Positions 4,797-44,491 of a stretch of 64,000 bases of DNA are shown piece after piece. Source of the DNA: a bacterium (GTDB lineage Bacteria; Bacillota_I; Bacilli_A; RFN20; CAG-826). The number at the start of each line of letters is the position of its first letter. Position 1 is the first letter of the stretch. The position numbers and the translations under genes were made by a program. Where the stretch lies: contig CAVEMS010000001.1 in assembly GCA_963616935.1 (NCBI GenBank), forward strand, positions 33,273 to 97,272. The letters run 5' to 3'. A model generated the notes under the pieces. It worked only from the letters and a program-made list of their open reading frames with translations, was not told where the DNA came from and ran no database searches.

Positions 4797-4886
4797 TCTT
4801 AATTGACGTCATTAAGCGTCTCTTCGGAGGCGCTTTTTATGTCTTTATTTTTCAAACGACTCCTATATATTTATTGCGGGGACAAT

Positions 4887-19475: not shown

Positions 19476-19633
19476 ATTTCTTCGCTCCAATGGTGAATTA
19501 TAATGTCTAGTCTAACGCAAAAAAGCCTTTGCGTGAAAAAAGCATTTTCATGCTTATTTATCGCCGGCAAACGAAATGATGCGAGTTTAACATTCTAATT
19601 GTTGGATATAATCCAAAAGAAAAGGACGATCGT

Positions 19634-24671: not shown

Positions 24672-24943
24672 AGGTTTTCCTTTCCTTTTGTTTTAATGAA
24701 ACCCATTTTTATGTTGCTATCTCTAAGCAAACGGACGACAGCAAATAAGAGGATTTCTTTCCTATAAAAGGATTGTAACCGCTTTCAAATTGGCGGTTTG
24801 CCTATTTGCTTACATTTATAGGCGGTTTTCTTCCATTTCGACGATTTTGTTCCATATGGGAGTCTATTTTCATTTGAATTGCCGCGTTCATATCAATTTA
24901 TATGCACATACGCGTGGCAAAAAAGGTTATATTCTTTTTAACC

Positions 24944-26727: not shown

Positions 26728-27557
26728 AAAGAAAAGCCAAAAACGTAGATTATGCGATTGGGAACCTTCCGCATAACAGGAAGGAGCAGTTTTTCGATAT
26801 CGCCAAGCACCGTTTCTTTTTGCTTCTCGGAATAGGGTTAATAATTCTTTTGTTTTCGTTGCCAATATTTGCCTCGATGATCTATCGGGATGTTTTATTG
26901 ATGAGTGTCGAGGCAAGCGAAGCGACTAGCGCCGAGAAAGAAGCCACTTCTTTCAGCGTTAACCTCCTCTTCTCTTTCCTTTTCGCGTTTTCTTTATTGA
27001 TTCTTTCCGTTGGGTTGTCCGGGATATCAAAGATACTTAGGGAATTGATATATGATGAGCCGATTTTCTTCAAAGACGATTTCTTTAGCGGGATCAAGGA
27101 AAACGCCAGGCAACATTTAATTCTTGCCCTTTTTGCAGGGATTTTTTGGTTTTTTGCCAATTTCATTTCTCTTATTGCAAACAATTTCATTCTCAAAGTC
27201 ATTTTCGTCGGCGTTAATATAGCCTTCATCTTTCCGCCCGTTTTCGTCGGCTTCTTCTTGGCTAACGTGTATTCGAATAAGTTCTTCAAAAACCTTCAAA
27301 GCGGTTTCGTTATCTATTTCAAAGCGTTCCCGTCGGTCATCTTGACGTTTGTTTCCATCTACGCCCTATCCTTTCTCCAATACGTGCCATTACTAATCGT
27401 CAAATATTTGGTGATGGCCGCTTTGACGGTGATATACGTTCCTTTCGCATTCCTTATCTCCTTCCTAAATCAAATTCGCTTATACGACGAACTCATCAAC
27501 AAAGAGCAATTTCCTGAGTATTATCACAAGGGCTTGGCGGACTATTACGGCAAATGA
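26724..27557 (+). CDS. Hypothetical polytopic membrane protein (possibly a YesL/DUF624-like accessory protein)
   Basis: ATG at 26724 overlaps the upstream stop. Six or more TM helices, with no EAA permease motif. Confidence 0.5.
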   Translation: MKRKAKNVDYAIGNLPHNRKEQFFDIAKHRFFLLLGIGLIILLFSLPIFASMIYRDVLLMSVEASEATSAEKEATSFSVNLLFSFLFAFSLLILSVGLSGISKILRELIYDEPIFFKDDFFSGIKENARQHLILALFAGIFWFFANFISLIANNFILKVIFVGVNIAFIFPPVFVGFFLANVYSNKFFKNLQSGFVIYFKAFPSVILTFVSIYALSFLQYVPLLIVKYLVMAALTVIYVPFAFLISFLNQIRLYDELINKEQFPEYYHKGLADYYGK

Positions 27558-27655: not shown

Positions 27656-30616
27656 ATGAAGAGAAGACTGCTGGCGCCATTATTCGGAGGAATCGTTTCC
27701 TTCGCGTTGATATTCACGATCGCTTCGGCGAACGGCGTTTTGACCTTCGCTAACGAAGCGAATGCTAAATGGGTGCATTATGCGAAAAAAGAAGCGACGG
27801 CTTCTTCTAATGGCGTTAGGGAATATTGGGTCAAGTGCGGCGCCAATCATTATCAATTCGAAGCACCTTCTTCTGGAACGGTGGAGGACGCTTTGACGTA
27901 TGACCTCTCCGAATTCGTGGAAAACGATCCTCGTTACATCATCTATGTGCCATCTAGCGTCAGCGCCTTCTATAGACAAAGCGATTCTCTATACGATTTC
28001 TCGGAATTCTCTTCGTCGGAATATCTTTTGGGAGACGGATATCGCGTATCAAACGTTTCGGGCGTTCTTGGGAATTCGTCGCGATATGAATTCGTCAAAG
28101 ACGATAAATCACCCGTTTATTCGGCGATGTGCATGACCGTCACCGACACCATAGGGACGAATGATGAATTGACCGCTTTATCGAAGACAATCGAAAAAGG
28201 AGATACGGACGGTTACTACGTTTTGACTTCGGATTTGTCTTCGCCAAGCGGTTGGACCGATAGCGACGATCATCTTTTCAAAGGGGTTTTCGATGGTAGG
28301 GGACATACGATCGATAAACCGATTACATGGGGCAAAAGGCTCTTTGGGAAAACGTATGGCGCGACCATTAAAAATGTCGATTTCACGAATATTGAGGTTT
28401 TTTGCGTTTTAGGTACCGAACTTACCGATACGACGATTGAGAATTGCTCTTTTAGCGTGGGCCCGGCGATGAACACAGCCTCCGGAGGAGCGCTTCTATG
28501 CGACGATTTGGGAAGCGGATCTCTTCTTAAGGATGTCTATATTGATATGGGCGAGACGAGCATGAAGTGCTCTTGGCTCGCACAAGGAGTCGTTTCCGCA
28601 ATCGCTTCCTATAACGTCTCTTCGGTTGATGATCCAGTGACTTACGATAATGTCACCTTCAGAGGACTAAACTCCACCAAGATGTATTTGTTTGACGCCG
28701 CTTATAGGGGGTTACGTCCGTCGGAAATAAATTACATAAGCACCTATTGGTTCATAAAAGACGGCGCCACCAATTACGATATCAAGTATGTTTCCGGCGA
28801 CGAAAACATCCAAATCGCCGCCACGATGATAAAGGATGAGATCTATAACGCGACGGGGAAGAGTTTGCCGCTTACGGCCATCGCCGCCTCCGACGTCTAT
28901 GAAAACCAAACATCGAGCATCATCGTTGGATCTAGCGTCTCGGCAACGGCGGAGAAGATAAGCCTTCCGACGGAGACGAGTTCTTACACCCTTAAAGGAA
29001 TCGGCAAAGCCATCTATTTGAATTCGGCCGATTCGAAAGGCTATCAGCTCGGCGCCCTCAAGCTATTGGACATATTGGTTGGATACGATTATTTGGGCGG
29101 CGAGATCTCGACTTATGATGTCTCTGACGTCAATAACATCGATTTGCCGTATATCGATATCTCCTATACGCCGTCATTCGGCTATCGTAAATGCGATTGG
29201 AGCGACATCGGATTCAGCTCCTCTTTCTATACCGATTGTTATCGTTTGGGATATAACACCGAATTCGATCGTTATTCGTATTATCTTCGCGCTCCAGCCG
29301 TTGGAACTTTCGCAAGTGAGGAATGCTTCCATACTTCACTGCAAATTATTTACCCAGGCACTTACTATTCTTCGCATCCGAACTGGTTTGCCGTCGATTC
29401 GAGCGGAAATAACTATGGAAGCGACTATCGGCTATGGCAACTTTGCTTTACCGCCCATGGCGATAATGCGGAATACCAATCGTTATTGGAGCAAACCGCT
29501 TCGACGGTTATCTCTTTGTTTAAGAATTGCGGCAACGCCAATATTCGTTCTCTCTTGTTTGGAACGGGCGATAGCATGAATGTCTGCCATTGTTCGACTT
29601 GCGAGGCGAAAACGAGCGAATATGGATCGATATCCGGAACGGTTGCGAATTTCTGCAATGATTTAAGGGATAAGATCTACGAGAACATAGCGGAAACGGG
29701 AAGGGATTCGGTTGACATCGGCTTCTTCTCGTATTGTGGCTATAACAGCGTGCCGTTTAAGAATGGTAGTCCGACCATAACGTTAAAAGACAACGTTTAT
29801 GTGCTTGTGGCTCCGATTGAGGCCAATTTCACCTATTCCCTTAACGAATCTTGTAACAGCTCCTTGAAAGAGATATTCGTGAACTGGGCGAAGGTCGGCG
29901 ACACGCACGCTTGGCTATATGACACCAATTTCAATAACTATCTATTCCCACACAATTCCTTCAAATCAAATGCCGAAAACATCAAGATTCTTAAAGATAT
30001 CGGCGTGAAGTTTATCTATTTGCAAGGGCAGCATAATTCGACGCAGCCAAGGACCGGCTTTCACGCGTTGAAGAAGTACGTGCACGGCAAATTCATGGTC
30101 GATGCGGATAATTCCGATTACGACGAGTTATTAAATAACTTCTTCGCTTCTTATTATGGTGAAGGAGGGAATGAGATGAGGACCTTCTATAACGAGATGG
30201 TCGCCCATTTAGAGAGTCTTGAAACGGATTCGAGCAAGACGAAGATACTTTACGCGAGCGATAGCAGATCGATATATGCCGCGATAAACGACCGGGATCT
30301 ATGGGATTACGACACTTTGAAGAGTTGGGCTTCTCTTTGCGACACCGCCTATTCGAAGGCCACGACTGAGAAAGCCAAGAAACATATTTTGGCTGAATCG
30401 ATATTCCCTCGTTTTGCCTTATGTTCCTTGTTTACCAAATATACGGATTGGAATGGCGGCAAAGTCTTAGATTTTAGCGGAACTGGGAAGGCGGCGTTAA
30501 AAGCGTACCGCGAGGCCTTCAAAACGGATGCCGATGCGCTTGGCATGACGATTACGACCGAAAGTAAAGCGAATACCTCTCTAAGCGATTATTATTCCGA
30601 TTGGGGCATTGCCTAA
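27656..30616 (+). CDS. Large secreted protein (986 aa). Its C-terminal half is paralogous to the 34137..36116 lipoprotein. Possibly glycan-active.
   Basis: Signal peptide followed by beta-helix-like repeats (NVDFTNIEVF..., TIENCSFS...). The C-terminal region carries CFTAHGD...NVCHCSTCEAK, shared with the 34137..36116 protein (CYTAHGD...NACTCSACRDN). Confidence 0.65.
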   Translation: MKRRLLAPLFGGIVSFALIFTIASANGVLTFANEANAKWVHYAKKEATASSNGVREYWVKCGANHYQFEAPSSGTVEDALTYDLSEFVENDPRYIIYVPSSVSAFYRQSDSLYDFSEFSSSEYLLGDGYRVSNVSGVLGNSSRYEFVKDDKSPVYSAMCMTVTDTIGTNDELTALSKTIEKGDTDGYYVLTSDLSSPSGWTDSDDHLFKGVFDGRGHTIDKPITWGKRLFGKTYGATIKNVDFTNIEVFCVLGTELTDTTIENCSFSVGPAMNTASGGALLCDDLGSGSLLKDVYIDMGETSMKCSWLAQGVVSAIASYNVSSVDDPVTYDNVTFRGLNSTKMYLFDAAYRGLRPSEINYISTYWFIKDGATNYDIKYVSGDENIQIAATMIKDEIYNATGKSLPLTAIAASDVYENQTSSIIVGSSVSATAEKISLPTETSSYTLKGIGKAIYLNSADSKGYQLGALKLLDILVGYDYLGGEISTYDVSDVNNIDLPYIDISYTPSFGYRKCDWSDIGFSSSFYTDCYRLGYNTEFDRYSYYLRAPAVGTFASEECFHTSLQIIYPGTYYSSHPNWFAVDSSGNNYGSDYRLWQLCFTAHGDNAEYQSLLEQTASTVISLFKNCGNANIRSLLFGTGDSMNVCHCSTCEAKTSEYGSISGTVANFCNDLRDKIYENIAETGRDSVDIGFFSYCGYNSVPFKNGSPTITLKDNVYVLVAPIEANFTYSLNESCNSSLKEIFVNWAKVGDTHAWLYDTNFNNYLFPHNSFKSNAENIKILKDIGVKFIYLQGQHNSTQPRTGFHALKKYVHGKFMVDADNSDYDELLNNFFASYYGEGGNEMRTFYNEMVAHLESLETDSSKTKILYASDSRSIYAAINDRDLWDYDTLKSWASLCDTAYSKATTEKAKKHILAESIFPRFALCSLFTKYTDWNGGKVLDFSGTGKAALKAYREAFKTDADALGMTITTESKANTSLSDYYSDWGIA

Positions 30617-30684
30617 TCTCTTCGATTCTTATTTTGAAGCGGTTTTTGCGGAGATTTTTGGATATTTGAGCAATGAATGGCTCA

Positions 30685-31596
30685 TTATTCCTTTAGCTTA
30701 TGTATTTCGCGATACTTGCCTGGCGCTAAGCCGTAGGTCTTTTTGAAAGTGTTCGAGAAATGAGACATCGAGGAATGGCCGATCAAATCGCATAGCTCAG
30801 TTATCGAGATGTCGCTATTGACCAAAATGTCGCGAGCGCTAGAAAGTTTGACCTTCTGTATATATTCGCCGATTGGTTCATTCATGTACTCTTTGAATAA
30901 GCGGGATAAGTGGGTCTTCGAATAATTCGTCCTTTTGACGACGTCGCTTACATTCCAATGGAGGTTGTTTGGGTTGTTTATTTCGGCTAATAGATCATTG
31001 AGCCATCCTGGTCTATTGTTCTCCGATAACGATTCCTTTTGATTGAACATCGGCTCTAAGAGATTGAAGACTAAGAAAGATATGAGGGAAGCGATTTTGT
31101 CATTTGCCTCATCCTTTTCCTTTATTTGGCTCAGCATGAAAACGATTTTCTTTAGACGCGCTTCGCTCAAGACGAAGGAATTGTATTTCTTCGGATCGAA
31201 TAACTCAAAAAACGAAGGAATCATCGTAAGGGCTATCTTTTCGAATCTCTCTTTCTTCAAACAGACGCAATAATGGCTCGAATTTTCTGATGTTTCGATG
31301 ATCATATGGGCGTTTTGCGGAAACAAGAATGTGCAATTGAGTTTCTTTTCTTGATGCTCCACGCCGTCGATTATATGAGTGTAGGTACCTTGGAAGAAGA
31401 TGATGAACTCATAGAAGTCGTGATCGTGATATGTCGGGTAGCCGTGGAAGACGTGGTGGAACTTGAGGAAATCGTCATAATTCAAATCCCTTTGGGTGTC
31501 GTAGATCAATTTAACGGGTTTCTCGAGATACATATTTGTTATAAAGGATAATGAAGAGGCCGCCTTTGTCAATATATGAATGGTGAAAAAAAGCAA
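30685..31596 (-). CDS. AraC-family transcriptional regulator (cupin-like N-terminal domain plus AraC HTH)
   Basis: The C-terminal region ...THLSRLFKEYMNEPIGEYIQKVKLSSARDILVNSDISITELCDLIGHSSMSHFSNTFKKTYGLAPGKYR is a canonical AraC HTH. The start is uncertain, at either 31596 or 31535. Confidence 0.8.
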   Translation of the reverse strand: MLFFTIHILTKAASSLSFITNMYLEKPVKLIYDTQRDLNYDDFLKFHHVFHGYPTYHDHDFYEFIIFFQGTYTHIIDGVEHQEKKLNCTFLFPQNAHMIIETSENSSHYCVCLKKERFEKIALTMIPSFFELFDPKKYNSFVLSEARLKKIVFMLSQIKEKDEANDKIASLISFLVFNLLEPMFNQKESLSENNRPGWLNDLLAEINNPNNLHWNVSDVVKRTNYSKTHLSRLFKEYMNEPIGEYIQKVKLSSARDILVNSDISITELCDLIGHSSMSHFSNTFKKTYGLAPGKYREIHKLKE

Positions 31597-31741
31597 ATTG
31601 AATATAAGGATTTCGATATCTCATTTTGCGTCAACGATAATGGTAATCATTCGATATATAGCCAATTATTATGTATTTTATTGCGTTTTAACCGTTCCAT
31701 AGGCGTTAACGAAAACGGAAAGAATAGACAAATGATGAAAG

Positions 31742-31768
31742 AAAAAAACGCCCGACGACAATCGGGCG
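31742..31768 (-). terminator. Rho-independent terminator ending the 42610..31788 operon
   Basis: On the minus strand: CGCCCGAUUGUCGUCGGGCG followed by UUUUUUU, immediately after the stop at 31788. Confidence 0.6.
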
Positions 31769-31787
31769 TGGCGAGAAGGAGTCGTTA

Positions 31788-34115
31788 TTAGGCTTTGATG
31801 CCGGTGATGGGGGATATCACAAAGAATTCCCAGCACGTTCCGCCGAGGCTAAGCGTTAAAGCGGCGGTGCCGTTATTGACGTTTTCGTCCAGTGTGAATT
31901 CTTTTTTGATATACGTTCCGACGAAGGAGATTTTTCCATTAGAGATGGTGACTTTCGTGTCTTCGGCAAGCTCCCACCCCCTGGTTGTGGTTTCTGGAGC
32001 AAGACCGATGAAGTTATCGGCCGATGGCGATGCCGAATAGGAGTCCGGCGCCGCTCCGAGGAAATATTGCATCTTTCCTCCGCCGCCGTTTCCGCCAAGT
32101 CCGAATGTGAAGCTTACTTTGCTATATTCAGAGTAATTGATCTTCGGGAAGGTGAGTGTCGCGTAAGCGCTTGAAAGGTTGTTAACTTGTCCGACGAAAT
32201 AATCGTCGCCAAGGGAGAATGGGAGGTTTTCGCCGAGGCTTCCTGCTGTTTTGGCTGCCGTTTTCTTGTCAGAGCTACAATCGAAACCGCTACTTGAGGA
32301 GACGATGCCGGAATTATCGGTGAAAGTGATGAAAGGAGTGTAGGCTTCGACCCACGCTTTCATCTTGGCTGACAATGGATTGGCCGTCTTTTCGTAAGAG
32401 GTCATAAGGTCCATAAGCGATTTGTATTCGCTTATTTGACCGGCGTATCCATCAACTGCGGCGTCTGGAAGCGCGTCTTCGATGGCTGACATGACCCCTA
32501 GATAATCGCAGTCGAACGTGCGGAACGGAGAGACGTATAGCCATCTCCAATTCGCGCCGGTCAAGGTTATCTCAAGGCCTTTTCTGCCATGGTATGTGTC
32601 ATTATCAAGCGTAATCGAGGTGTTCGCTCCGGTATAGGCATTGCTCACCGTTACGTTTTGTCCATCGATGGTCACGGTGTAGTTATAGAAGCTCTTGGTC
32701 GCTAAGTCCCCGATCGCCGTGTTGTTGAGCTTGACGCTGGAAACGCTGCCGCTGAAACCGAAGGTGAAACCGATGGGTGAGGTGGCGGCGGAGAAATCGT
32801 AAGCGGGGAGCCCTAATCCGGCGACCACGCTCATGCTGTTAGGATATAGGAAGCCTTGTGAGCCGTCGCCTCCGGGATAATATTCGCTTGTGATGTCGCT
32901 ATCCCTGTCCGTTTCTCCTCTCACTGCGTATTTCCAAGTTGCCTCGGATGGCTGAGTGTAGTCGGTGTCATTATTGGTTAATTTCAAAACGGCATCGTTA
33001 TTCTCGTTAAAATGGGTCGCGCTCCAGCGAGCGACGAGAGTCATATCGTCGTTGACTTTATCGACTTTTTCGCCTTCTTCGTTATACCAACCGATGAACT
33101 TATGCCCAGCGATGTCTTCTGGCGCGCTTGGGAGTTTGTTTGAAGCGACTTTGACGCTCGTATTCGCTCCATCGGCTGTGACGTTCTTTAACGTGACGTC
33201 ATAGGCGCCTTTTGCGACATGGACGTTGATTTCGAGACTCATGGCGAATTCTTCGCAAACGACCTTCAAAATCGCTTCGCCTTTCGCTTTGGCGACGATT
33301 TTGCCATCTTCCCAAACGGCTACGGATTCGTCGCTTGAAACGTATTTCAAAGCGTACGTTGCTTTGTTTTCTCCTTCGGTGAAGACGATTTCTGGGGTGA
33401 ATTCCGTTTCGTATCCGTCTTCTCCTTCCATTTTGTAAGTGGCGAGGTTAAGCTCATAACCATTCTCTCCGTCTTCGAGATTTCCTAAGGCTAGATGCAA
33501 ATCGCTATTGACGACATTCACTTTTAGCGTTTGCGATAAGGTCACGCCTTTTGCCTTGGTGTGGATAACATATGATGATTGGCCGTATTTTAAGCCAACT
33601 ACTTTGATTTTCGAATTTTCGTATGTCAAAGAGGCGATGTCGTCACTTTCCATTTCGAGCGTGGCGTCGATTATCTCGCCTTTATAAAGGACATAGGCAT
33701 CGATGGAATATGTTTCGTCTTTTCCGATGCTCACCTCAAGGTCGCTCATAACGATGCGTGGAGCTTGGGAAATGGATTTTACGGTGACATCGCAAGTCGC
33801 TCTGACGCCTCCTATTGAAGCGACTATGACGCAGTTTCCCGTTTTAAGGGCTTCGACTTTGCCGTTCGAGACGCTTGCGACTGAGTTATCGCTGCTTCCC
33901 CAAGTGACGGGGCCAGAAAGGTTTTGAAGCTCATATGTCAGAGTTATGCTTTCATATTGCTCAAGCGAGACGCTCGTTTGGCTTAGTATGATCTTTGGCT
34001 CAACCAGTGAGGAGCCGCTGTCATTTGAAGGGTTCTCGCTTTTTCCCTCGCCGCAAGCGGCAAGAAGACAGGCGGAACTAAGGAGAAGTAAGATGGAAGA
34101 TATTTGCTTTTTCAT
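31788..34115 (-). CDS. Surface lipoprotein with Big_2 (bacterial Ig-like) domains, a Listeria-Bacteroides repeat, and a C-terminal domain paralogous to the 22380..24671 protein
   Basis: Lipobox LLLSSACLLAACGEG. Big_2-like sequence (VTWGSSDNSVASVSNGKVEALKTGNCVIVA). Repeat motif GHKFIGWYNEEGEKV...LVARW. C-terminal homology to the 22380..24671 product. Confidence 0.7.
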   Translation of the reverse strand: MKKQISSILLLLSSACLLAACGEGKSENPSNDSGSSLVEPKIILSQTSVSLEQYESITLTYELQNLSGPVTWGSSDNSVASVSNGKVEALKTGNCVIVASIGGVRATCDVTVKSISQAPRIVMSDLEVSIGKDETYSIDAYVLYKGEIIDATLEMESDDIASLTYENSKIKVVGLKYGQSSYVIHTKAKGVTLSQTLKVNVVNSDLHLALGNLEDGENGYELNLATYKMEGEDGYETEFTPEIVFTEGENKATYALKYVSSDESVAVWEDGKIVAKAKGEAILKVVCEEFAMSLEINVHVAKGAYDVTLKNVTADGANTSVKVASNKLPSAPEDIAGHKFIGWYNEEGEKVDKVNDDMTLVARWSATHFNENNDAVLKLTNNDTDYTQPSEATWKYAVRGETDRDSDITSEYYPGGDGSQGFLYPNSMSVVAGLGLPAYDFSAATSPIGFTFGFSGSVSSVKLNNTAIGDLATKSFYNYTVTIDGQNVTVSNAYTGANTSITLDNDTYHGRKGLEITLTGANWRWLYVSPFRTFDCDYLGVMSAIEDALPDAAVDGYAGQISEYKSLMDLMTSYEKTANPLSAKMKAWVEAYTPFITFTDNSGIVSSSSGFDCSSDKKTAAKTAGSLGENLPFSLGDDYFVGQVNNLSSAYATLTFPKINYSEYSKVSFTFGLGGNGGGGKMQYFLGAAPDSYSASPSADNFIGLAPETTTRGWELAEDTKVTISNGKISFVGTYIKKEFTLDENVNNGTAALTLSLGGTCWEFFVISPITGIKA

Positions 34116-34136
34116 GGCTTTTATCCTTTCTTTTAT

Positions 34137-36116
34137 TTATAAGCCCCAGGAATTGAAGACACTATCCATGGTGGCATTTTCGTTTAAATAAGTGACATTG
34201 GCTTTGTTGCAGTCTTCCTTGAAGGATTTGCGGAGGTTTTTGATGGTTTCGGAGCTGTATTTGCCGCTGTAGTGGTTTATCAAGGCGTATCTTGGGAAGA
34301 TCGATTCGAGAGTGAGGTTCTCATAAAGCGCTTCGTACAATGTGCGGTTAGTGTCCTTGCATTTGAGAATCGCTTCCTTGCCTTCCTCGATATAATCGAC
34401 CCATCTATCGAGCAATTTCTTCGGCCAGAAACGGGATTGGGCGATGTTGTTATAGATCGTTCCGTTGATGTCGCTGCTATAAGTGGTCTCGATATATTCG
34501 CACTGCTCTTGTAATTCGTGGAAATATTTGAGCATCACGTTCTTCGCGTCGCCGAAATAGTTGGTGAAGAAATCATCTACTATATCGTTATAGTCAGTGT
34601 TAACGTCGAACAAAGAGACGGAATTGAGGTATTCCTTAAAACGGCCGAAGCAAGTGACGGCTCCGTTATTGTGCTGCCCTTCGTTATACATATACATGCC
34701 ATTATTTTCGTAGGCGAAGCGATAGCTCTCGATCATCGTGTCATAAGTGTTCAAAGGATAGAGATAATGGCTGAAATTCGTTTCATAGAACCATAGGTAG
34801 ACTTTGTTTGACAAAGCGCCCCAGCCTTTGATGTAATTGGCGTAGTTTGAGTTATCTTCGTCATAGAAGCTCTTGGTGTAGCAAGCGCTGATTGGAGCGA
34901 TATAGGGTCCGACGTGTTCATTGCAGACGACGTCAGGGCTGGTCGGGATGTATTTCCCATCCGCGCCAAGCTTGACGCATGGCTTTTCTGTTCGGTGATA
35001 AGCGAAGAAAAGAATGTTCAATTCGCGTTTCGCTTCGCCGGTTTTTTCGGCTTCCGCTTCCAAATAGGCTTGGATCTTGTCATCTAATTTATTGCAGAAG
35101 ACGACGACGGAGCCGCTCTCTGCGCCGTATTTGGCGACGTTATCGCGGCAAGCAGAACATGTGCAAGCGTTCGCGTTGTCTTGGATGGTGAAGGTTAGGG
35201 CGCCGACGGTCTTATTGCTTTTGAGTTTTTCGACCATCTTGCCGTAAACCTCATTGACCATGGCGTCGAGTTCGGTTGAATCACCATGGGCCGTATAGCA
35301 AATCTGATCACCGCCATCGCTATACCATTTTGGGTGGTAGGTGTAGTATTCCGACGGGGAACCGTCGCTATTTTCTTTCGGCAAATAGTCAAATGAATTA
35401 TGGAAGGATTGGATGTTGCTATCCGAATAGAAAGTTTCCGAGGTCGTTAAGAAACCCATCTCATAAGATGCGGTGTTCGAGATTTTGTTGCTTTGGGTGT
35501 GAAAAGTGACATCCGGTCTTTCTACGATGTTGATGTCCGGAAGGGTTTTGCCGTCTTTCGTATATTTCACGATGTTATAGCTATAACGAGTGAAGCCGAT
35601 GACGTGTTTAAGGAAAGTGATGGCGGCTTGCTGATATCCGTATTCGCCTTCGACGCGGATATAAACCGCGTTTTCCTTGGTGACGATTTGGTAGCCGCTT
35701 GGGCCAAGTGCCTTATCGGAGACGGGGATATTTTTCGAGGCTTGATAAGCGGAATCGCCAAGCAAGATGAAATGGTCGTCCGTCAGGTTTTCCGGTAGTG
35801 AGTCGACCAAAAGGCAAACGCCGGTGGCTGATTCAATATGGGTGGCTATCGTGCTGGCCGCTTTCTTGGCGTTCGAATCGCCTTCTTCATAATAGATTTT
35901 GTAATCGGAATGTCCATTATCAACGAAAACCCTATCCGATTCCTTAACATCCACATCGTGAAGGGTTCCTTCTTGGAAGTGGAGTTCGTCGTCGCTAGTG
36001 ACGCTGATGACGTTGTCGATATTATCCGAGCTATCATCGGTGTGATCGCCCGAACAGCCGACTAAGGAAAGAGGCAGGAGAGAGAGGAGAAGCAATTTGT
36101 TTAATTTCTTATTCAT
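34137..36116 (-). CDS. Lipoprotein of unknown function. Paralogue of the C-terminal half of the 27656..30616 protein and carries the conserved CxCxxC motif.
   Basis: Lipobox LLPLSLVGCSGD. Shared blocks include WYSDGGDQICYTAHGD, NACTCSACRDN and FYETNFSHYLYP. Confidence 0.65.
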   Translation of the reverse strand: MNKKLNKLLLLSLLPLSLVGCSGDHTDDSSDNIDNVISVTSDDELHFQEGTLHDVDVKESDRVFVDNGHSDYKIYYEEGDSNAKKAASTIATHIESATGVCLLVDSLPENLTDDHFILLGDSAYQASKNIPVSDKALGPSGYQIVTKENAVYIRVEGEYGYQQAAITFLKHVIGFTRYSYNIVKYTKDGKTLPDINIVERPDVTFHTQSNKISNTASYEMGFLTTSETFYSDSNIQSFHNSFDYLPKENSDGSPSEYYTYHPKWYSDGGDQICYTAHGDSTELDAMVNEVYGKMVEKLKSNKTVGALTFTIQDNANACTCSACRDNVAKYGAESGSVVVFCNKLDDKIQAYLEAEAEKTGEAKRELNILFFAYHRTEKPCVKLGADGKYIPTSPDVVCNEHVGPYIAPISACYTKSFYDEDNSNYANYIKGWGALSNKVYLWFYETNFSHYLYPLNTYDTMIESYRFAYENNGMYMYNEGQHNNGAVTCFGRFKEYLNSVSLFDVNTDYNDIVDDFFTNYFGDAKNVMLKYFHELQEQCEYIETTYSSDINGTIYNNIAQSRFWPKKLLDRWVDYIEEGKEAILKCKDTNRTLYEALYENLTLESIFPRYALINHYSGKYSSETIKNLRKSFKEDCNKANVTYLNENATMDSVFNSWGL

Positions 36117-36127
36117 TTTATGTCTCC

Positions 36128-39088
36128 TTATTTCGTTACTTCGAAGGTGAAGGATTCGTAAGAAACGTTACCAGCGCTATCCATCGCTCTGATGCGTAGG
36201 GTATAGGTGCCTTCGTGCTGTGGCTTGAAGGCGTTATGGGTGCCAAGATAATAAGTCTGCCCATAACTTGTCTCCACATAGACGGAAACGATTGGGTTTT
36301 CGTCGATGTCGTCGGTGACGATGTAGGAAGGAACTCTAACCGTCTCTCCGACTTTGACGGAGGAAGGAATGGTTCCGGTGACGGTTATGATTGGCGCCGT
36401 CGCATCGTCGATGTTAATCGCGAAGATGAAATTCGTTTCGTTATCGCTTGAATCGAATGCGGAGTAAGTGGCGATGTATTGTCCGTATTCGGATATTTTG
36501 ATCTGATACTCAATGGTGGCGTCGACGGCGTTAAGAAGATTTCCGTTGACGTCTTTTGCGATATTGCCGTTTGGGTCTTTGACGGTTACGGTGCAAGAGA
36601 CATTCGGATCGAGGACGTCGCTAGCCGTTATCCTATTGATCGTCACATAGTCCCCATAAGCATAGCTTCCGCCGTAGTCGCCATGGATCGCGATCCTTGG
36701 TCCGCCATGGTCGCTAGTCGAATAGGAGATGCTTTGATTGTCGATTTTGGATAGTTTTAGTCCCGCCCCGGTTTTGGCGTTGATTAATTCCAAAGAAAGG
36801 TAGACTTTGCCAGAACTAAATCCGGTAAAAGACGCGCCATCATCGTAAGAACGAGCCTTAACGCCGGTGCCGTTGAAAGCGAAGAGGCCATCGGCATAGC
36901 TTACCGCCAAGGTGTTTTTCTTTAAGAAGCTCGACGAAGTGACATAGGCTTTGCCGTTGATTCCATAGGAAATCTCGCCTGAGGCGTTAGCGATCAAGGA
37001 AACGGTGAACTTTTCGTTTTCGTTTTCGCTATCGGTGAAGCTGATGTTTAGTTTCTTGAAGTCGAATCTTTCGAGGTCGGTCGATAGGGAAATAGAGGAG
37101 TTTTTGGCGATTATCGGGTTAACGAAATCGAAGGACGCATTGCCCTTTTTCGTCGCATAGAAACTGACATCGTTATCGCTGACATCGAAAGTCATGTTCT
37201 CGCCGACGAGATAGTTTTCGATGGCGAAACGATCGATTCCTTTTTTCCTGACGTAAGGATTGATCGTTTGGACTTTGTAAGTCTTCGTGATGTTCTTATA
37301 TGAATAGACGAATTGCAATTGTTCTTGTGAGGAGGAGATTTTCGGGACGAAGGAAGAGCCGCTTTCGGCATCGTATGGATAGATTCCGTTATCGACTCTG
37401 ACGTTCATCGAAACGGGCGTCCCGGTGCCGGAAGAATAGTCATAAATTACCGCTTTCGGCAAAGTATAGATGCCATCGGATATGTAGTACTTCGGGAATT
37501 TGGGTTCTTCGTATAGGACCGCTCCATCGTTGGAGGTGGCCGTGTATTCGTAAGCGTACTTAGATTCCTGGCCGATTACGTCCTTGGCGGTGAAGGCGAC
37601 CGAATAAGTTCCGAGTTCTTTTGGGATGAATCCGTTTTCGTCGCTTGGATAAACGACGCCGTCTTTCTTGACTTCGAAGGAGCCTTTGAGCTCGCCTGAC
37701 CCGCCCGTCATTTTGAATTTCGGGAACGAAAGGGGTTCGCCTTGCTTCCCGCTTGAAGCGATTTCGCCATCGGCTTCGATCGTTATCTTTTCGACGTTTT
37801 CGTCGGTAGTGACTACCACCGTTTTTGAGGAGATGTTTCCGGTTTTGTCTTTGGCTTCGTAGACAATGCCGTAGACGCCATCTTTTGCGACTTCAAAACG
37901 GCCGTCTTTCGCTTTGACGTTCACCATATTCACGGAACCGTAGTTGTAATATACGCGCGAAGTGACTTCGCACTCGCCATCCATATCGTCTTTCGCTTTG
38001 GCGGAATATATAGGGTAGGAGAAGCCTTTTTTGGCGCTAGGCAATTCGCCGGCTGGCAAATCGACGGTTATTTCCGGTCCCTCGTTATCGATGATGGTCT
38101 CGGTTGAGATGTCGTGCCCCAAAAGGTCGGTGATTAAGAAATTCGCGCTTGAGGAGCTATATCCGCGGGCATAGATGCTTAAGTTGACTAAGCTAGATTC
38201 GAAGCCATCCCATAAGGTACTGACGTACTTCGGATCGTCGAAATCGACCACAAAGATGTTGTTAACGTATAAAGCGTTCTCGTCTTTCTTGTATTTAAGG
38301 GTGATGACCGAACCATCTTCGCCTGGTTTTCTATCTGGATAATCCGGGGAATAGGAACCATAGAAACTATGGGTGATTGGAGTGCCGAAATCATCGTTGA
38401 TATGTATTTGGTTGAATTTCTTTTCGTATCCCGTGAGCAATTGATCGGGGCCCTTGGCCGCTATATAAGTCCAAGGAGCCGAAAGGCCTTCATTCGACGC
38501 TTTCGCGCGGACGGTCATAACGTTATCAGGGTTATCGGTTTCCGATAATGATATGTATAGTTCGTTGAAATCGATGACGCCGAGCATTGAAGGGGTGACG
38601 AATAGCTCGATGATATTGCCGTCTTTCGATAGATCGATTGGCTGTGATAAGGAAAGGGTTTCGCCTTCGGCCAAAGAGACATATAAGCCTTCTTTGTTGT
38701 ATGTTCTATCGCTTGTTTCGAATGAGGAGATCGATTTGGTGCCGCTAAAAGAGAGAAAGGGGCTTCTCACCAAGAAAGTCTCCGTCTCGGAATAGCATTT
38801 GCCATCCTTTTCAGCAGTGAAGTGAAGGGTATAGACGCCGACTTCCGATAAGATGACCTCCGATTGGTAATAGGAAACACCGCTTGGGAATTCGATTACG
38901 CAATCGTAAGTGATGCCGTCTTTCATTAGGGAAGGCAAAACGAAAGTCGAATTGAACTTGTACTCGTCCGCAATGCTTAATTCGGCCATTTTCGCTTTCG
39001 GAGAGGTCGCGAATGAAACGGAAGTCGATGCCGCGAAAGGCAGAATTAGAAGAGAAGGGACGACAAGCAAGCGTTTGGACTTTTTCAT
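36128..39088 (-). CDS. Large secreted protein (986 aa) with repeated Ig-like/beta-sandwich segments. Function unknown.
   Basis: Signal peptide MKKSKRLLVVPSLLILPFAASTSVSFA. Low-complexity beta-strand-rich repeats. Co-operonic with the sugar ABC genes. Confidence 0.65.
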   Translation of the reverse strand: MKKSKRLLVVPSLLILPFAASTSVSFATSPKAKMAELSIADEYKFNSTFVLPSLMKDGITYDCVIEFPSGVSYYQSEVILSEVGVYTLHFTAEKDGKCYSETETFLVRSPFLSFSGTKSISSFETSDRTYNKEGLYVSLAEGETLSLSQPIDLSKDGNIIELFVTPSMLGVIDFNELYISLSETDNPDNVMTVRAKASNEGLSAPWTYIAAKGPDQLLTGYEKKFNQIHINDDFGTPITHSFYGSYSPDYPDRKPGEDGSVITLKYKKDENALYVNNIFVVDFDDPKYVSTLWDGFESSLVNLSIYARGYSSSSANFLITDLLGHDISTETIIDNEGPEITVDLPAGELPSAKKGFSYPIYSAKAKDDMDGECEVTSRVYYNYGSVNMVNVKAKDGRFEVAKDGVYGIVYEAKDKTGNISSKTVVVTTDENVEKITIEADGEIASSGKQGEPLSFPKFKMTGGSGELKGSFEVKKDGVVYPSDENGFIPKELGTYSVAFTAKDVIGQESKYAYEYTATSNDGAVLYEEPKFPKYYISDGIYTLPKAVIYDYSSGTGTPVSMNVRVDNGIYPYDAESGSSFVPKISSSQEQLQFVYSYKNITKTYKVQTINPYVRKKGIDRFAIENYLVGENMTFDVSDNDVSFYATKKGNASFDFVNPIIAKNSSISLSTDLERFDFKKLNISFTDSENENEKFTVSLIANASGEISYGINGKAYVTSSSFLKKNTLAVSYADGLFAFNGTGVKARSYDDGASFTGFSSGKVYLSLELINAKTGAGLKLSKIDNQSISYSTSDHGGPRIAIHGDYGGSYAYGDYVTINRITASDVLDPNVSCTVTVKDPNGNIAKDVNGNLLNAVDATIEYQIKISEYGQYIATYSAFDSSDNETNFIFAINIDDATAPIITVTGTIPSSVKVGETVRVPSYIVTDDIDENPIVSVYVETSYGQTYYLGTHNAFKPQHEGTYTLRIRAMDSAGNVSYESFTFEVTK

Positions 39089-39089
39089 A

Positions 39090-39998
39090 TTATCCTTTGA
39101 TACCTCCCATGGTTAGGTTTCCAAGTAATTTCTTATGGAAAATTAAGAAGATGACTAGAACTGGCAGAAGCATTAAAGCGGCTGCGGCCATACGCGCTGG
39201 AGCGTTGGAAAGTTCGTTGATGTTAGAGAAAACCATACGATACATGCCGACGGCGATCGTTGGATAGCTGTCTAAATAGACGAGAGGAACTTGGTAATCG
39301 TTCCAGAAGGTGATGAAGTTGATGAGCATGACGGTGAAAAAGAGGGGTCGGACCATCGGCAGGATGATTTGAAGCAAGACCCTAAGATTACTTGCGCCGT
39401 CGATTCGAGCCGCTTCGATGTAAGCGTTAGGCAAGGAGCGGAAATAGTTATAGAAGACGATGAAGTAAAGACCTAAGAAATTGGCTTTGAGCAACCATAC
39501 GCCCCAAATTTGGTCATATAATCCGAAGCGTCTTGCCATCGCGATTTCGGCTGGCAAATTGCCGACTATCGGCAAAATCATCGTGATGACGACGATTAAG
39601 TAGATGATTTTTGAGAACTTGTAGTCGAATTTGGCGCATAGATAACTCGTGATGCAGGGGACGATGGTCGCGAAGAACGCACATCCTAAAGCGTATAAGA
39701 AACCATATAGGAATAATTGAGGCAGCATCACGTATTCGACGCCGCTTGCCGTTTGAATTTCGATGTAGAAGAGGTTATAGACGTTCTCAAAATTGGTGAG
39801 CACCCATTCTTTTGGTAGTCCGACCGGATTGATGGCGAAATCGGTGTTCGGCGCTTTGAAAGCGGTCATCAAAGCCCAGATCAAAAGAGTCAAGATCGCT
39901 AAAGAATAGAGAATCAAAAAGATAACGATGATGATTGATAAAGGCGAGATTTTCTCGCGTTTCTTGGCAACTGGCCGATGAAAGACGTTCATTCTCAT
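39090..39998 (-). CDS. Carbohydrate ABC transporter permease (MalG-like)
   Basis: Six TM helices and the EAA motif (IEAARIDGASNLRVLLQIILP). Confidence 0.85.
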   Translation of the reverse strand: MRMNVFHRPVAKKREKISPLSIIIVIFLILYSLAILTLLIWALMTAFKAPNTDFAINPVGLPKEWVLTNFENVYNLFYIEIQTASGVEYVMLPQLFLYGFLYALGCAFFATIVPCITSYLCAKFDYKFSKIIYLIVVITMILPIVGNLPAEIAMARRFGLYDQIWGVWLLKANFLGLYFIVFYNYFRSLPNAYIEAARIDGASNLRVLLQIILPMVRPLFFTVMLINFITFWNDYQVPLVYLDSYPTIAVGMYRMVFSNINELSNAPARMAAAALMLLPVLVIFLIFHKKLLGNLTMGGIKG

Positions 39999-40001
39999 TC
40001 T

Positions 40002-40892
40002 TTAATCCTCCGATGGTCCGAATCTCTCTAGCAACCGTTTGGTGATTAAGGTCAAAGGAACGGCAATTATGGTAAGAAGGAGCCCGATTGCGCAGATATA
40101 AGGATATTCGGATTCGTTGATACCGGCGTTGATGGTCAAGCTATATAGATGATAGCCGTATGTTTGGACGGCCTCTGGGGCCGTTGTGCCATAAAAAGAG
40201 AAAAGGTTCATCTGATTGGTGAAGATGGAAGCGACGCTTGTGATGGCAAAAGTCGTTATCGTCGGATAAATGCCTGGCAAAACAATATGGATGAATTCTT
40301 GCCAAGCGTTGCATCCGTCGATTTTGGCCGCTTCGATAACGTCGGTTGATAAGCCGCTCATCGCATTGCTATACATCAAGACGTTAGTGCCAAAACTCAC
40401 CAATATGTTATAGAAGATGATCGCCCAGAAACGGGTTTTTGGATCGGAGATTAAGCCTCCGATTGAGTAACCGAAGATTTCCGGCATCGCCGACTCGACG
40501 AAATATTGGTAAATCGTGACCATGACGATGGCCGAAAGGATCGAAGGCATGAAAAGCATGACCTTGAAGAAAGATCCCATCGGCAACTTCTTATAGATGA
40601 AATAAGAGAACAACAAAGCGAATATCGTTCCTATCGAGTAAGTTAATAAGAAATATAGGAAAGACATCCCGAAAGTCGTTAGCAGTGTCGGTTCCGTCAT
40701 CTTTTGGAAGGCGTTCGATAAGGCGTCTATTGACCAAGTCGCCGTCCCGCTTGTCATATCGATCTTTTGGAAGGCGTAGAGAAAGCTTCTAGCATTAACC
40801 CCGATATAGAAGATGGCGAATTGGGCGACGGGGAAAAGCATCATCAGAACATAGAATAAGAAGTTTCCGTCAAATAGCTTCTTCTTTTTCAT
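40002..40892 (-). CDS. Carbohydrate ABC transporter permease (MalF-like)
   Basis: EAA motif (IEAAKIDGCNAWQEFIHIVLP), six TM helices. Confidence 0.85.
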   Translation of the reverse strand: MKKKKLFDGNFLFYVLMMLFPVAQFAIFYIGVNARSFLYAFQKIDMTSGTATWSIDALSNAFQKMTEPTLLTTFGMSFLYFLLTYSIGTIFALLFSYFIYKKLPMGSFFKVMLFMPSILSAIVMVTIYQYFVESAMPEIFGYSIGGLISDPKTRFWAIIFYNILVSFGTNVLMYSNAMSGLSTDVIEAAKIDGCNAWQEFIHIVLPGIYPTITTFAITSVASIFTNQMNLFSFYGTTAPEAVQTYGYHLYSLTINAGINESEYPYICAIGLLLTIIAVPLTLITKRLLERFGPSED

Positions 40893-40927
40893 AATGGTTC
40901 CTGTTGGCCTTCTTATGACTATAAGAA

Positions 40928-42610
40928 TTAATGGTTATAGTGGCTCCACTCGTTTTTATAGTAGGTGTACATGCCAGAGAAATAATCCTCGGCTGAGTAT
41001 CCTTCGTCGGTCAAACCGGTTACGACCCACTGGTTCGTTTTGCCGTTGATAGTCGTTTCATATTGGAAATTCGGATGGAATTTCTTCTGATTGTTGGCGA
41101 AGAAGGAATTATTCGCACAAGGATAGATGATGTCGCTATTCGCCTTTCTCTCGTATAAGGAACGACCATAGTATGTCATTTGATTCAGATCGTTTTCTGT
41201 CATCGTGTAATTGAGGGCTTTCGGAGTGTTCGTAGTGATGGTGTATTCAACCAAAGAGGTGTCGGTGTTACAGAATTTGATGAATTCTTTGACGATGCTC
41301 TTCTTATATTCTTCGACGTTGGCCTTCATGAAGCAGAAAGAATAAAGATGGTCATAAAGGGTCGTTTTCTTGGTTGAATCCGCTTTTTCCTTGGTTGGTT
41401 GCGGAAGAGGCATGAAAGCGAAGCGGCGGTTCTTCATCGAAGCTGATTCGCTCTTGGACGATTCCATTTCCTCGAAAATGCCTTTGGCTTCGTTTTGCCA
41501 CCAGCAGCCATCGCTAAGCATGGCATATTGCGGGGTGCTTTCGTCATAGCCGCCATAAAGGAAATCCCTTTGGGCATCGGTATGCGAATAAGCGGTGGTC
41601 ATTTTCGTCTTGTTGTAATAACTATCGTTTTCGACGATGGTTTTGAGGAATTTGATGCCGTAATATTTTCCGGCCATACGGGAAACTTCATATCCGTTTT
41701 CTTCCGTCAATGTCGTTGGGGCGCTATCTATCACCAATTCGCCGTTTTTGATGGTTGCCAAAGTGTTAACTTCGCCATCGCAAGTGAAGACCTTGCTCAT
41801 TTCTTCTTTGCCTTCGTAATTGGCGGCGAGGGAATTGACCAATAAGTTCAAATAATCGTTTTTGTTTTTGCCGTTCGATAAGAAGGGAACGCAGTCGCTT
41901 TTGGCGATGTAGTTGCATAAGTCGAAGAATTCGTCATAAGTTGTCGGCAATCCGTCGTCGCTAGTTCCCGAAACACCGTCTGGACCGTCGGACTTTTTGA
42001 TGTTCGTTTTGCTGATGAATTTATCGGCTAGGTAAGTCGTTCCGCTTGGGTTCTTCGCAAAATAGAAACCTTTTTTGTCGAATAAATCGACGTTATAGGT
42101 GATTCCGAAATATCCAGAGTAATGCGGCAATGCGTAATAATGTTTTTCGCCGTTCTCTTCGATTCCATAGAAGGATTTTTGCGAATCGTCCATCTTATCG
42201 AGGATCGATTTGTCTTCGCCGTCGAGCTTATCGGTGACGACATCGGTGATATCGGCCAAGATTCCTTCGTTCTTAAGGCTGAAGTAAGACGATTGCTCGG
42301 TGAAGATGACTTCGTCCCTGTTCGTCAATATCTTGTTAGCGGACGCATCGGCGGTGTCCTTATTGTTATTGATATAGATTTGAACGCCTTTCTTGCCTTC
42401 TTCCAAAACGTCGTCTTTATGCGCTTCCTCAAAGCGGTCTTTAATTTTGGATAGCCACTCCGATCCGTATCCTCCGTCATAATTCCTGACGTAAATCTGC
42501 GTCTTTGATGCGTCGATTTTCTCGACATTCGGAGGAGTGGTGGTTTTGCAGCCGACCACGGCAAAGCTCAAAGCGCTTGAGGCTAAGAGCAGAACGTTTT
42601 GTTTTCTCAT
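40928..42610 (-). CDS. Extracellular solute-binding lipoprotein (family-1 sugar ABC binding protein)
   Basis: Lipobox LLLASSALSFAVVGCKT, 560 aa. First gene of the operon, adjacent to the permeases. Confidence 0.75.
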   Translation of the reverse strand: MRKQNVLLLASSALSFAVVGCKTTTPPNVEKIDASKTQIYVRNYDGGYGSEWLSKIKDRFEEAHKDDVLEEGKKGVQIYINNNKDTADASANKILTNRDEVIFTEQSSYFSLKNEGILADITDVVTDKLDGEDKSILDKMDDSQKSFYGIEENGEKHYYALPHYSGYFGITYNVDLFDKKGFYFAKNPSGTTYLADKFISKTNIKKSDGPDGVSGTSDDGLPTTYDEFFDLCNYIAKSDCVPFLSNGKNKNDYLNLLVNSLAANYEGKEEMSKVFTCDGEVNTLATIKNGELVIDSAPTTLTEENGYEVSRMAGKYYGIKFLKTIVENDSYYNKTKMTTAYSHTDAQRDFLYGGYDESTPQYAMLSDGCWWQNEAKGIFEEMESSKSESASMKNRRFAFMPLPQPTKEKADSTKKTTLYDHLYSFCFMKANVEEYKKSIVKEFIKFCNTDTSLVEYTITTNTPKALNYTMTENDLNQMTYYGRSLYERKANSDIIYPCANNSFFANNQKKFHPNFQYETTINGKTNQWVVTGLTDEGYSAEDYFSGMYTYYKNEWSHYNH

Positions 42611-43388: not shown

Positions 43389-44483
43389 GTGAATAAAAAC
43401 GACAAGAAAAAACATCAGAGTAACAAAGGGTTAATAGACCCCTCCAAAGTCAAGACGTTCATCGTTCATCACGAATGCGAATTGCTCGCTTTTTTACGTG
43501 AGAAGATGCCTAAGCAATCGCAACATAACATTCGCCATATGATCGCCAATCATCAAGTGGCCGTCGGTGGGGCCCCGGTCTCCCTTTTCAAAGCGCCTCT
43601 TTACCCCGAGGACGAAGTCACCGTCACCTGGAACCCGATAAGAAGGAAGGAAAGGAAAGACCTTCCGATTGTCTATGAAGACGACGACATAATCGCTATC
43701 AATAAGCCGAGCGGACTATTAAGCGTGGCCACGGAAAGGGAGAAAGGCAAGACGGCATATCGCCTAGTTAGTGATTACGTCACCCAAAAAGATAGGAACA
43801 ACCGAATCTTCGTCGTCCATCGTTTGGACGAGGACACTTCTGGCGTCCTTATCTTCGCCAAAAGTTACGCGGTGAAGGAAGCCCTTCAATTACATTGGCA
43901 GGAGATTGTCTCCAAACGCGGCTATTATGCGATAGTTGAAGGGGAGGATATCCCTGAACAAGGACGACTCGAGGATTACCTTACAATCGATGATACATAT
44001 ACGGTCCACGTGACGAGGAATAAGAAATTAGGGAAGCTTGCGATCACGAATTATCGCAAAATCGCCTGCAAAAACGGCTTATCCCTCCTCGATGTCGATA
44101 TCGAAACCGGAAGAAAGAACCAAATAAGGGCACAACTCGGGCATATTGGATATTATGTAATCGGAGATGACCGTTATGGCGAGCCGTCCGATCCATTAAA
44201 AAGACTTGGGTTACACGCCTATCAATTGACTTTTGTCAATCCGATGAGCAAAAAGAGCTACGACCTCAAGGCCGATATCCCAGAATCTTTCAAAAGACTC
44301 TTTTGGCGAACGCGAAAGCAAGAAGCCGAAGAGAAGCTCAAGAAAGAGGAAAAACGAGCGATGAAATCGTTCGATAAGGCCTATAACAGTGAGAAACCGC
44401 TGAGAAAGAGAAAAAATAGAAGCGATAAGGGAGGGAAGAGAGCATGGCAGAAGAAAAAAGCAAAACAAAACACCCGCTACTAA
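43389..44483 (+). CDS. RluA-family 23S rRNA pseudouridine synthase with N-terminal S4-like domain and basic C-terminal tail
   Basis: Catalytic motif HRLDEDTSGVLIFAK. The start is a GTG at 43389 with no good RBS and is uncertain. Confidence 0.7.
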   Translation: MNKNDKKKHQSNKGLIDPSKVKTFIVHHECELLAFLREKMPKQSQHNIRHMIANHQVAVGGAPVSLFKAPLYPEDEVTVTWNPIRRKERKDLPIVYEDDDIIAINKPSGLLSVATEREKGKTAYRLVSDYVTQKDRNNRIFVVHRLDEDTSGVLIFAKSYAVKEALQLHWQEIVSKRGYYAIVEGEDIPEQGRLEDYLTIDDTYTVHVTRNKKLGKLAITNYRKIACKNGLSLLDVDIETGRKNQIRAQLGHIGYYVIGDDRYGEPSDPLKRLGLHAYQLTFVNPMSKKSYDLKADIPESFKRLFWRTRKQEAEEKLKKEEKRAMKSFDKAYNSEKPLRKRKNRSDKGGKRAWQKKKAKQNTRY

Positions 44484-44491
44484 AAGAATTC

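Follow-up and report, generated by a model that had tools for sequence, protein, structure and literature searches.

The window analyzed here is a 64,000-nucleotide stretch of contig CAVEMS010000001.1 (assembly GCA_963616935.1, positions 33,273 to 97,272 of the forward strand) from a bacterium of the CAG-826 lineage of Bacillota. Its region from 18.6 to 42.6 kb is likely to be a Gram-positive polysaccharide-utilization locus for glycans that contain N-acetylhexosamine (HexNAc), probably of an N-glycan-like type. A hallmark of Gram-positive loci of this kind is the co-location of a degradative enzyme, a carbohydrate transporter and a regulator, and all three component classes occur together in the window, where two enzymes of the DUF4838 family, an ATP-binding cassette (ABC) importer and an AraC regulator lie between 24.9 and 42.6 kb. 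What is new is that a large secreted protein family, which we call X, is strictly paired with an ABC importer and a lipoprotein of the DUF4838 family, accompanied by a short ATPase and a module of three membrane proteins. A first-pass annotation, made from the sequence alone, had proposed a polysaccharide-utilization locus whose catalytic and binding components belong to undescribed families. The importer, the predicted surface enzyme, the β-sandwich proteins, the AraC regulator and the conservation of the cassette all support that reading, but the catalytic family is a described one.

The core of the locus is a six-gene operon on the minus strand, and an open reading frame (ORF) map of the window reproduced exactly the coordinates at which its genes had been placed. 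The first gene encodes a substrate-binding lipoprotein of 560 residues (40928-42610; lipobox VVGC at residue 21) and is followed by genes for ABC permeases of the MalF/UgpA type (296 residues, 40002-40892) and the MalG/UgpE type (302 residues, 39090-39998). Next are the gene for protein X, a secreted all-β protein of 986 residues (36128-39088) that is probably the glycan-binding partner of the DUF4838 enzyme, and the gene for that enzyme, a 659-residue lipoprotein (34137-36116; lipobox LVGC) that is placed in the GH163/GH185 superfamily as a putative glycoside hydrolase of the cell surface. The last gene encodes a 775-residue lipoprotein with Big_2 domains (31788-34115; lipobox LAAC), a putative surface glycan-binding or spacer protein. 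The gaps between neighboring genes are 35, 3, 1, 11 and 21 nt, and thus the six genes fit a single operon. The clean terminator that had been noticed after the operon is an intrinsic minus-strand terminator at 31738-31769, in which a 9-bp GC-rich hairpin with a T-run at 31769..31748 reads ACGCCCGA-TTGT-CGTCGGGCGT and then TTTTTTCTTT. Beyond it, the minus-strand gene at 30685-31596 does encode an AraC-family regulator, of 303 residues, with a match to HTH_18 (1e-19) and a weak match to the AraC_binding cupin sensor domain (7e-4). Among related loci, which carry L numbers below, an AraC homologue occupies the equivalent position in L009 (90% identity) and L020 (53%), and AraC genes also adjoin the distant cassettes L007 and L023. 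A scan of the window with Rfam returned no RNA elements.

The 659-residue lipoprotein matches Pfam DUF4838 (PF16126) with 97.1 bits (1.4e-27), where the gathering cut-off of the model is 26.6 bits. A second DUF4838 protein, of 986 residues, is encoded on the plus strand at 27656-30616 and matches the same model with 132.6 bits (2.3e-38) over residues 491-845. The earlier statement that no large protein of the operon carries a recognizable glycosidase motif was therefore wrong, and so was the view of the catalytic component as an undescribed family, since DUF4838 is the domain common to glycoside hydrolase (GH) families GH163 and GH185. The plus-strand protein consists of an N-terminal region of about 365 residues without a family match, for which Pfam at a relaxed threshold found none, and a GH163-like catalytic region; the 659-residue protein aligns to its residues 366-985 with 26% identity over ~620 residues (E 9e-58), so that the proposed paralogy is real. 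Protein X and the plus-strand enzyme, both of 986 residues, were also considered as paralogues and rejected, because a sequence comparison shows no relation between them. NCBIfam returned no matches for the four large proteins, and searches of the PDB with X, the 659-residue and the 775-residue protein, by single sequence or by profile, gave no informative relative, only immunoglobulin (Ig) modules and insignificant hits to GH20 and GH67 N-terminal domains.

DUF4838 is the catalytic TIM-barrel domain of the CAZy families GH163, represented by BT1035 of Bacteroides thetaiotaomicron, and GH185, represented by Sp_0475 of Streptococcus pneumoniae, and these two are the only biochemically characterized DUF4838 enzymes that we found in the literature. 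BT1035 is a surface-located endo-β-N-acetylglucosaminidase that cuts the GlcNAc-β1,2-Man linkage, in which GlcNAc is N-acetylglucosamine, and frees N-acetyllactosamine (LacNAc) antennae from complex N-glycans. Sp_0475 is a cytoplasmic exo-acting 6-sulfo-β-GlcNAcase with a substrate-assisted retaining mechanism, and its key residues are Q174, H227, D309 and Y436, with R633 required for the sulfate. Both enzymes act on GlcNAc, and in both the acetamido group of the sugar is used in catalysis. The two families differ in their cysteines: GH163 has one cysteine upstream of helix α3 plus a C-x-C-x-x-C motif after strand β4, and GH185 has the C-x-C-x-x-C motif only; the loop with this motif also bears the putative acid/base residue (PMC11776370, a paper of 2024).

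An alignment of 31 homologues of the 659-residue protein, which takes in the plus-strand paralogue, revealed that D313, C273, C318, C320, C323 and Y444 are invariant and that H239 is nearly so. D313, C318, C320 and C323 lie in the segment IQD313NANAC318TC320SAC323 (D313-x4-C318-x-C320-x-x-C323), in which the invariant aspartate sits five residues ahead of the CxCxxC motif, with C273 upstream of it; the plus-strand protein shows the same cysteine and CxCxxC motifs (QLCFTAHGD and DSMNVCHCSTC). The cysteine pattern is therefore that of GH163, with the placement of C273 relative to helix α3 taken from spacing only, and the four-cysteine cluster of both DUF4838 proteins is probably a structural zinc site. 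In spacing, compared without alignment, H239, D313 and Y444 resemble H227, D309 and Y436 of Sp_0475 and are plausible counterparts of these three; D313 is at the putative acid/base position. With GH185 the 659-residue protein shares the DUF4838 domain and the CxCxxC motif, and it departs from that family in two respects. GH185 has no extra upstream cysteine (PMC11776370), whereas C273 is invariant here, and the members of the GH185 cluster lack a signal peptide and are cytoplasmic, whereas the 659-residue protein carries a lipoprotein signal (MNKKLNKLLLLSLLPLSLVGC). A lipobox is present in 22 of the 31 homologues, and across the families of this enzyme and of the 775-residue Big_2 protein its cysteine hardly ever varies.

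Judged from its sequence, then, the 659-residue lipoprotein looks like a GH163-like member of a described superfamily. It has in common with BT1035 the DUF4838 domain, the four-cysteine signature and a location at the cell surface, found for BT1035 and predicted here, and its locus likewise neighbors enzymes for the β-mannoside of the N-glycan core. Unlike the 659-residue protein, BT1035 combines DUF4838 with a C-terminal F5/F8 module, which Pfam did not detect here, and it works with a SusC/D system in a diderm bacterium, whereas the present enzyme is a Bacillota lipoprotein with an ABC importer and is always encoded beside X.

A confident structural model of X (AlphaFold, from 26 homologues; predicted local distance difference test score, pLDDT, 85.8) is entirely β. 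An Ig-like domain is followed by a concanavalin A (ConA)-like sandwich of ~215 residues (~110-325), several Ig/PKD-like domains, a second ConA-like sandwich (~610-790) and two Ig/cadherin-like domains, and comparison of folds placed both sandwich modules with the concanavalin-A-like lectin/glucanase fold. Neither Pfam nor NCBIfam has a family model over most of the length of X, with weak Ig-type matches at the C-terminus only, and Pfam at a relaxed threshold found none for the ConA-like modules. In the PDB, by sequence, only the C-terminal modules of X found matches, to the cadherin-like modules of the Staphylococcus aureus adhesin SraP (E 4e-8). The X of this genome has an ordinary signal peptide, and a lipobox-type signal is present in 7 of 26 family members. 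A word-indexed search that returned 26 relatives had suggested that X is a tiny family, a view overturned by an exhaustive HMMER search, in which the 150 top-scoring representatives of clusters at 50% identity included ~145 end-to-end matches of ~980-1060 residues, so that the family comprises at least 145 clusters. A scan of metagenomes for relatives added merely three true ones. Few relatives have a source name; their annotation is "hypothetical protein" or "DUF5011 domain-containing protein", and their sources are metagenome-assembled genomes (MAGs) of Bacilli, Clostridia and Clostridiales. In our reading X serves at the cell surface as a glycan-binding or scaffold protein.

The 775-residue lipoprotein is the third large protein of the operon. 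In its model (pLDDT 82) three Big_2 Ig-like domains come first, followed by a domain like the Listeria-Bacteroides repeat and then by two β-sandwiches with a four-helix linker between them; the two sandwiches resemble each other weakly (E 6e-5). The double-sandwich C-terminal half is shared with a 763-residue paralogue encoded on the minus strand at 22380-24671 (42% identity over ~470 C-terminal residues, E 2e-102), which bears out the second proposed paralogue pair. In L005/L010, L017 and L020 the gene immediately upstream of that for the binding protein encodes a homologue of the 763-residue protein. Pfam found no family for the C-terminal halves of either protein, even at a relaxed threshold. 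PDB searches with the 775-residue sequence, single or as a profile, returned no informative relative, and a fold search returned generic strings of Ig domains only, among them S-layer proteins and, weakly, the surface glycan-binding protein SGBP-B of Bacteroides. On these models neither X nor the 775-residue protein has a catalytic fold, and both look like binding or scaffold proteins. Thus, of the three large proteins that the first-pass annotation listed as being of unknown function, the 659-residue protein falls into DUF4838, but X and the C-terminal half of the 775-residue protein do belong to no Pfam or NCBIfam family. The 763-residue protein and the 986-residue plus-strand enzyme each start, past the signal sequence, with a short segment containing cysteine and tryptophan (ERAHWHCNDCC and REYWVKCGANHYQF, respectively), which may be a shared small module; for the ~300 residues that come next in the enzyme there is no family match.

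The transporter genes encode the parts of a Type I carbohydrate ABC importer of the MalFGK2/UgpAEC kind. The sugar-binding lipoprotein predicted earlier is a divergent, enlarged family-1 solute-binding protein: TIGR03850 (carbohydrate-binding protein) matches residues 3-184 (3e-15), the N-terminal 180 residues, about one third of the protein, match PDB entry 9h0n (2e-8), and Pfam found no match. Its homologues head the cassette in relatives at 25-87% identity. Both permeases match BPD_transp_1, as expected from their earlier description as MalF- and MalG-like; the first does so with 2e-16, beside weak UgpA and MalF matches, and the second with 6e-16, beside UgpE (2e-17) and MalG (3e-14). The importer had been described as lacking an ATPase, and there is indeed none inside the operon, but a short nucleotide-binding protein of the UgpC/GlcV/MalK type is encoded on the plus strand at 24902-25681, with its likely start methionine at 24944. 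It matches UgpC with 1.5e-69 over model positions 1-222 of 357, MalK with 1e-58, and also GlcV. The protein ends ~19 residues past the UgpC match, its homologues measure 235-245 residues, and a C-terminal regulatory domain is absent. In L014, L016, L021 and L022, homologues with 44-57% identity follow the cassette immediately and share its strand. From the type of this ATPase and its synteny in relatives we infer that it is the dedicated motor of these permeases, one without a regulatory domain and placed here in a neighboring, convergent operon.

Downstream of the ATPase gene on the plus strand are genes for three membrane proteins, followed by the second DUF4838 gene. The first, of 161 residues (25659-26144), has counterparts of 29-34% identity in L014, L016 and L021, and the second, a membrane-anchored protein of 196 residues (26137-26727), has counterparts of 36-40% in the same three loci. 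The third, a polytopic protein of 292 residues (26679-27557), travels with the short ATPase, and counterparts of 31-40% identity follow the ATPase in L014, L016, L021 and L022. A relaxed Pfam threshold yielded no match for any of the three, and for the 292-residue protein none even at E 5. The ORF after the ATPase gene was considered as a frameshifted C-terminal domain of MalK, which would make the ATPase a split one, and this idea was rejected because that ORF is a conserved membrane protein.

Gene neighborhoods in related genomes were compared, and the cassette was kept in every related locus examined. These were 18 distinct loci, reached from the X side or from the DUF4838 side, at 22-100% identity, and the order of binding protein, permease, permease, X and DUF4838 is kept in every one with enough DNA, down to ~24% identity. 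A protein bearing Big_2 domains is usually next after DUF4838. The relatives are MAGs labeled as uncultured Bacilli, Bacillota, Staphylococcaceae or Holdemanella, from human gut (including Hadza) and ruminant gut. The cassette of one relative is on a scaffold of ~1.05 Mb, which hints at a small genome, and the host of the present locus is probably an uncultured gut member of the Bacillota with a small genome. Three bins (L013, L016 and L017), with X at 46-48% identity, are labeled Parasutterella excrementihominis, Bacteroidaceae and Bacteroidales; these labels look like mislabeling.

The genes around the cassette bear on its substrate. At 19634-22084 on the plus strand, a GH2 β-mannosidase of 816 residues lacks a signal peptide and is thus predicted to be cytoplasmic; its matches in the PDB include 5n6u (9e-102) and BtMan2A, 2je8 (4e-74), and a homologue with 66% identity adjoins the cassette in L015 and L020. 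Two genes in the window had been called β-mannosidase-like GH2 enzymes, and this one deserves the name; the other, placed at 11221 in an ORF that spans 11143-12999, likewise lacks a signal peptide but is nearer to a β-galactofuranosidase than to β-mannosidases, with PDB entries 7sf2 and 9j6n (β-D-galactofuranosidase) as its closest matches. A HAD-family hydrolase of 290 residues (18618-19490, minus strand; HAD_2 4e-16) recurs beside the cassette, with homologues of 60-63% identity just downstream of it in L012 and L019; a PDB search with this protein returned nothing. GH2 and GH130 are families known for cleaving Man-β1,4-GlcNAc of the N-glycan core, and the L020 cassette (53% identical) is flanked by a GH130 gene, a GH2 β-mannosidase, a GH127 gene and a gene of the GlcNAc-2-epimerase family. 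A GH163-like surface enzyme with GH2 and GH130 neighbors fits an N-glycan-like substrate, and in this lineage the substrate class is most likely an N-glycan-like glycan with GlcNAc and β-mannose. The earlier guess of a mannose-containing host glycan thus gains some support from the N-glycan enzyme within DUF4838, from the GH2 β-mannosidase and from the GH130 and GH2 genes of L020, but the case is incomplete.

These observations suggest the following sequence of events for the use of such a glycan. At the cell surface, the lipid-anchored 659-residue enzyme, probably assisted by its 986-residue DUF4838 paralogue, would cut a complex glycan at a β-linked N-acetylhexosamine. Cleavage would be substrate-assisted and retaining, as in the GH20/GH163/GH185 group; D313 would act as acid/base, and the site would include a structural Cys4(Zn) cluster. 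The glycan would be held or presented by protein X, whose two lectin-like ConA sandwiches sit on an Ig stalk, and by the Big_2 proteins of 775 and 763 residues, much as surface glycan-binding proteins do in the Sus-like systems of Bacteroides. The released oligosaccharide would be captured by the 560-residue lipoprotein and imported through the MalF/MalG-type permeases, with the energy supplied by the short MalK-like ATPase (24902-25681). Exo-acting enzymes in the cytoplasm would complete its breakdown; in this genome these would include the GH2 β-mannosidase, which lacks a signal peptide, and in relatives a GH130 enzyme. The AraC protein would, in turn, induce the operon.

Several observations weigh against this reading. 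The window contains no GH18/GH85 or PNGase-type enzyme, α-mannosidase, sialidase or GH20 enzyme, such as a complete N-glycan pathway would require. The X of this genome has no membrane anchor. The assignment of catalytic residues draws on conservation, spacing and the published description of the motifs, and the report in the Journal of Biological Chemistry (JBC) stresses the very great diversity inside DUF4838, so that the specificity of the present subfamily may differ. Finally, the accessory enzymes vary widely by cassette. L023 has three GH109-like genes, L022 a GH36 gene with an ulvan-lyase-like one, L002 a GH63-like gene with a gene for a 2442-residue DUF4838 protein, and L007 a GH94 gene with a second DUF4838 gene; GH127 is found near L005 as well as L020. 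The substrate is thus not expected to be uniform across the family, and the core looks like a platform that is combined with varied downstream enzymes.

The same neighborhoods could be taken to indicate a non-host target, such as β-mannan or manno-oligosaccharides, fungal galactomannan or the glycans of plant glycoproteins, with a DUF4838 specificity unrelated to N-acetylhexosamine. The GH130, epimerase-family and GH2 β-mannosidase genes that L020 unites also make up an epimerase/phosphorylase route for β-mannan, and the GH127 genes near L005 and L020, the resemblance of the GH2 enzyme at 11143 to a β-galactofuranosidase and the origin of related MAGs from ruminant as well as human gut would all suit such a target. 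A mannanase of GH26 or GH5, however, was seen in none of the cassettes, both characterized DUF4838 enzymes act on GlcNAc through its acetamido group, and the GH109-like and GH36 genes of other cassettes would suggest host-type HexNAc glycans, as both families include α-N-acetylgalactosaminidases. On balance we consider a non-host target unlikely.

Alternatively, the first cut could be made by X itself, as a ConA-fold endo-glycanase or lyase, leaving the DUF4838 enzyme to trim as an exo-hydrolase. A pattern search of the ConA-like domains in 26 family members revealed no conserved occurrence of the GH16 motif E-x-D-x(1,2)-E, or ExDxxE-type motif, and the second sandwich is almost devoid of conserved acidic residues. 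Furthermore, the nearest match of X in sequence and architecture is the ligand-binding region of SraP, in which an L-lectin module is joined to cadherin-like modules. An enzymatic X is thus quite improbable. Least probable of all, and by our estimate very remote, is that the large proteins attach the cell to host or particles, as adhesins or parts of a surface layer, and are linked to the transporter only incidentally, for although their Ig-rich architectures resemble those of S-layer proteins and adhesins, 18 loci keep strictly to one gene order that also takes in the permeases and a glycosidase-family gene, the intergenic gaps are merely 1-21 nt and the catalytic-site residues of the enzyme are invariant.

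As a proposed locus for HexNAc-containing glycans, the region resembles Gram-positive polysaccharide-utilization loci and the Sus-like systems of Bacteroides in having a surface enzyme, non-catalytic β-sandwich binders, a dedicated importer and a local regulator, and the 775-residue model weakly matches the fold of Bacteroides SGBP-B. It differs from both in that its putative binding proteins belong to families without a Pfam model and in that the ATPase of its importer lacks the regulatory domain and is accompanied by three small membrane proteins, which are conserved. SraP, for its part, differs from X: X has two lectin-like and about seven Ig-like modules, lacks serine-rich repeats and an LPXTG anchor, and is encoded within a transporter-and-glycosidase operon.

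The cassette points to a large uncharacterized branch of surface-exposed DUF4838 proteins in uncultured gut Bacillota and, in X, to a partner family made up of at least 145 clusters at 50% identity. These are concrete targets for enzyme and lectin discovery, the more so as one characterized DUF4838 enzyme is attractive for N-glycan remodeling, and they offer a handle on the means by which gut Bacilli with small genomes live on glycoproteins from host or diet; no current concept is overturned. It is possible, though we put it forward tentatively and with more doubt than belief, that X, as lectin scaffold, and the GH163-like lipoprotein, as hexosaminidase, are the two obligate halves of one surface machine. 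The machine would define an unrecognized, widespread type of locus for host HexNAc glycans in uncultured gut Bacillota, re-targeted by the swapping of accessory enzymes. Driving it would be a dedicated ATPase, itself devoid of the regulatory domain, together with three accessory membrane proteins for which the sugar ABC importers described so far offer no counterpart.

A literature search for DUF4434 returned nothing. Elsewhere in the window, just beyond the cassette at 44444-46853, a gene for a DUF1538 membrane protein is followed by one for a 269-residue protein with a P-II-like domain, a pair that is kept in the closest relative, L009. At 1043-6431, two large proteins (639 and 554 residues) without a Pfam or NCBIfam match are encoded beside a 542-residue protein with an M6-type metalloprotease domain. 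A 621-residue protein encoded at 56496-58361 has a short collagen-like repeat, Listeria-Bacteroides repeats (Flg_new and Flg_new_2) and DUF6273. Finally, the region at 13888-17378 encodes an 875-residue fusion of Orn/Lys/Arg decarboxylase and agmatine deiminase (PAD_porph) domains, with a carbon-nitrogen hydrolase next to it, which by its domain content looks like a fused arginine-to-putrescine pathway.

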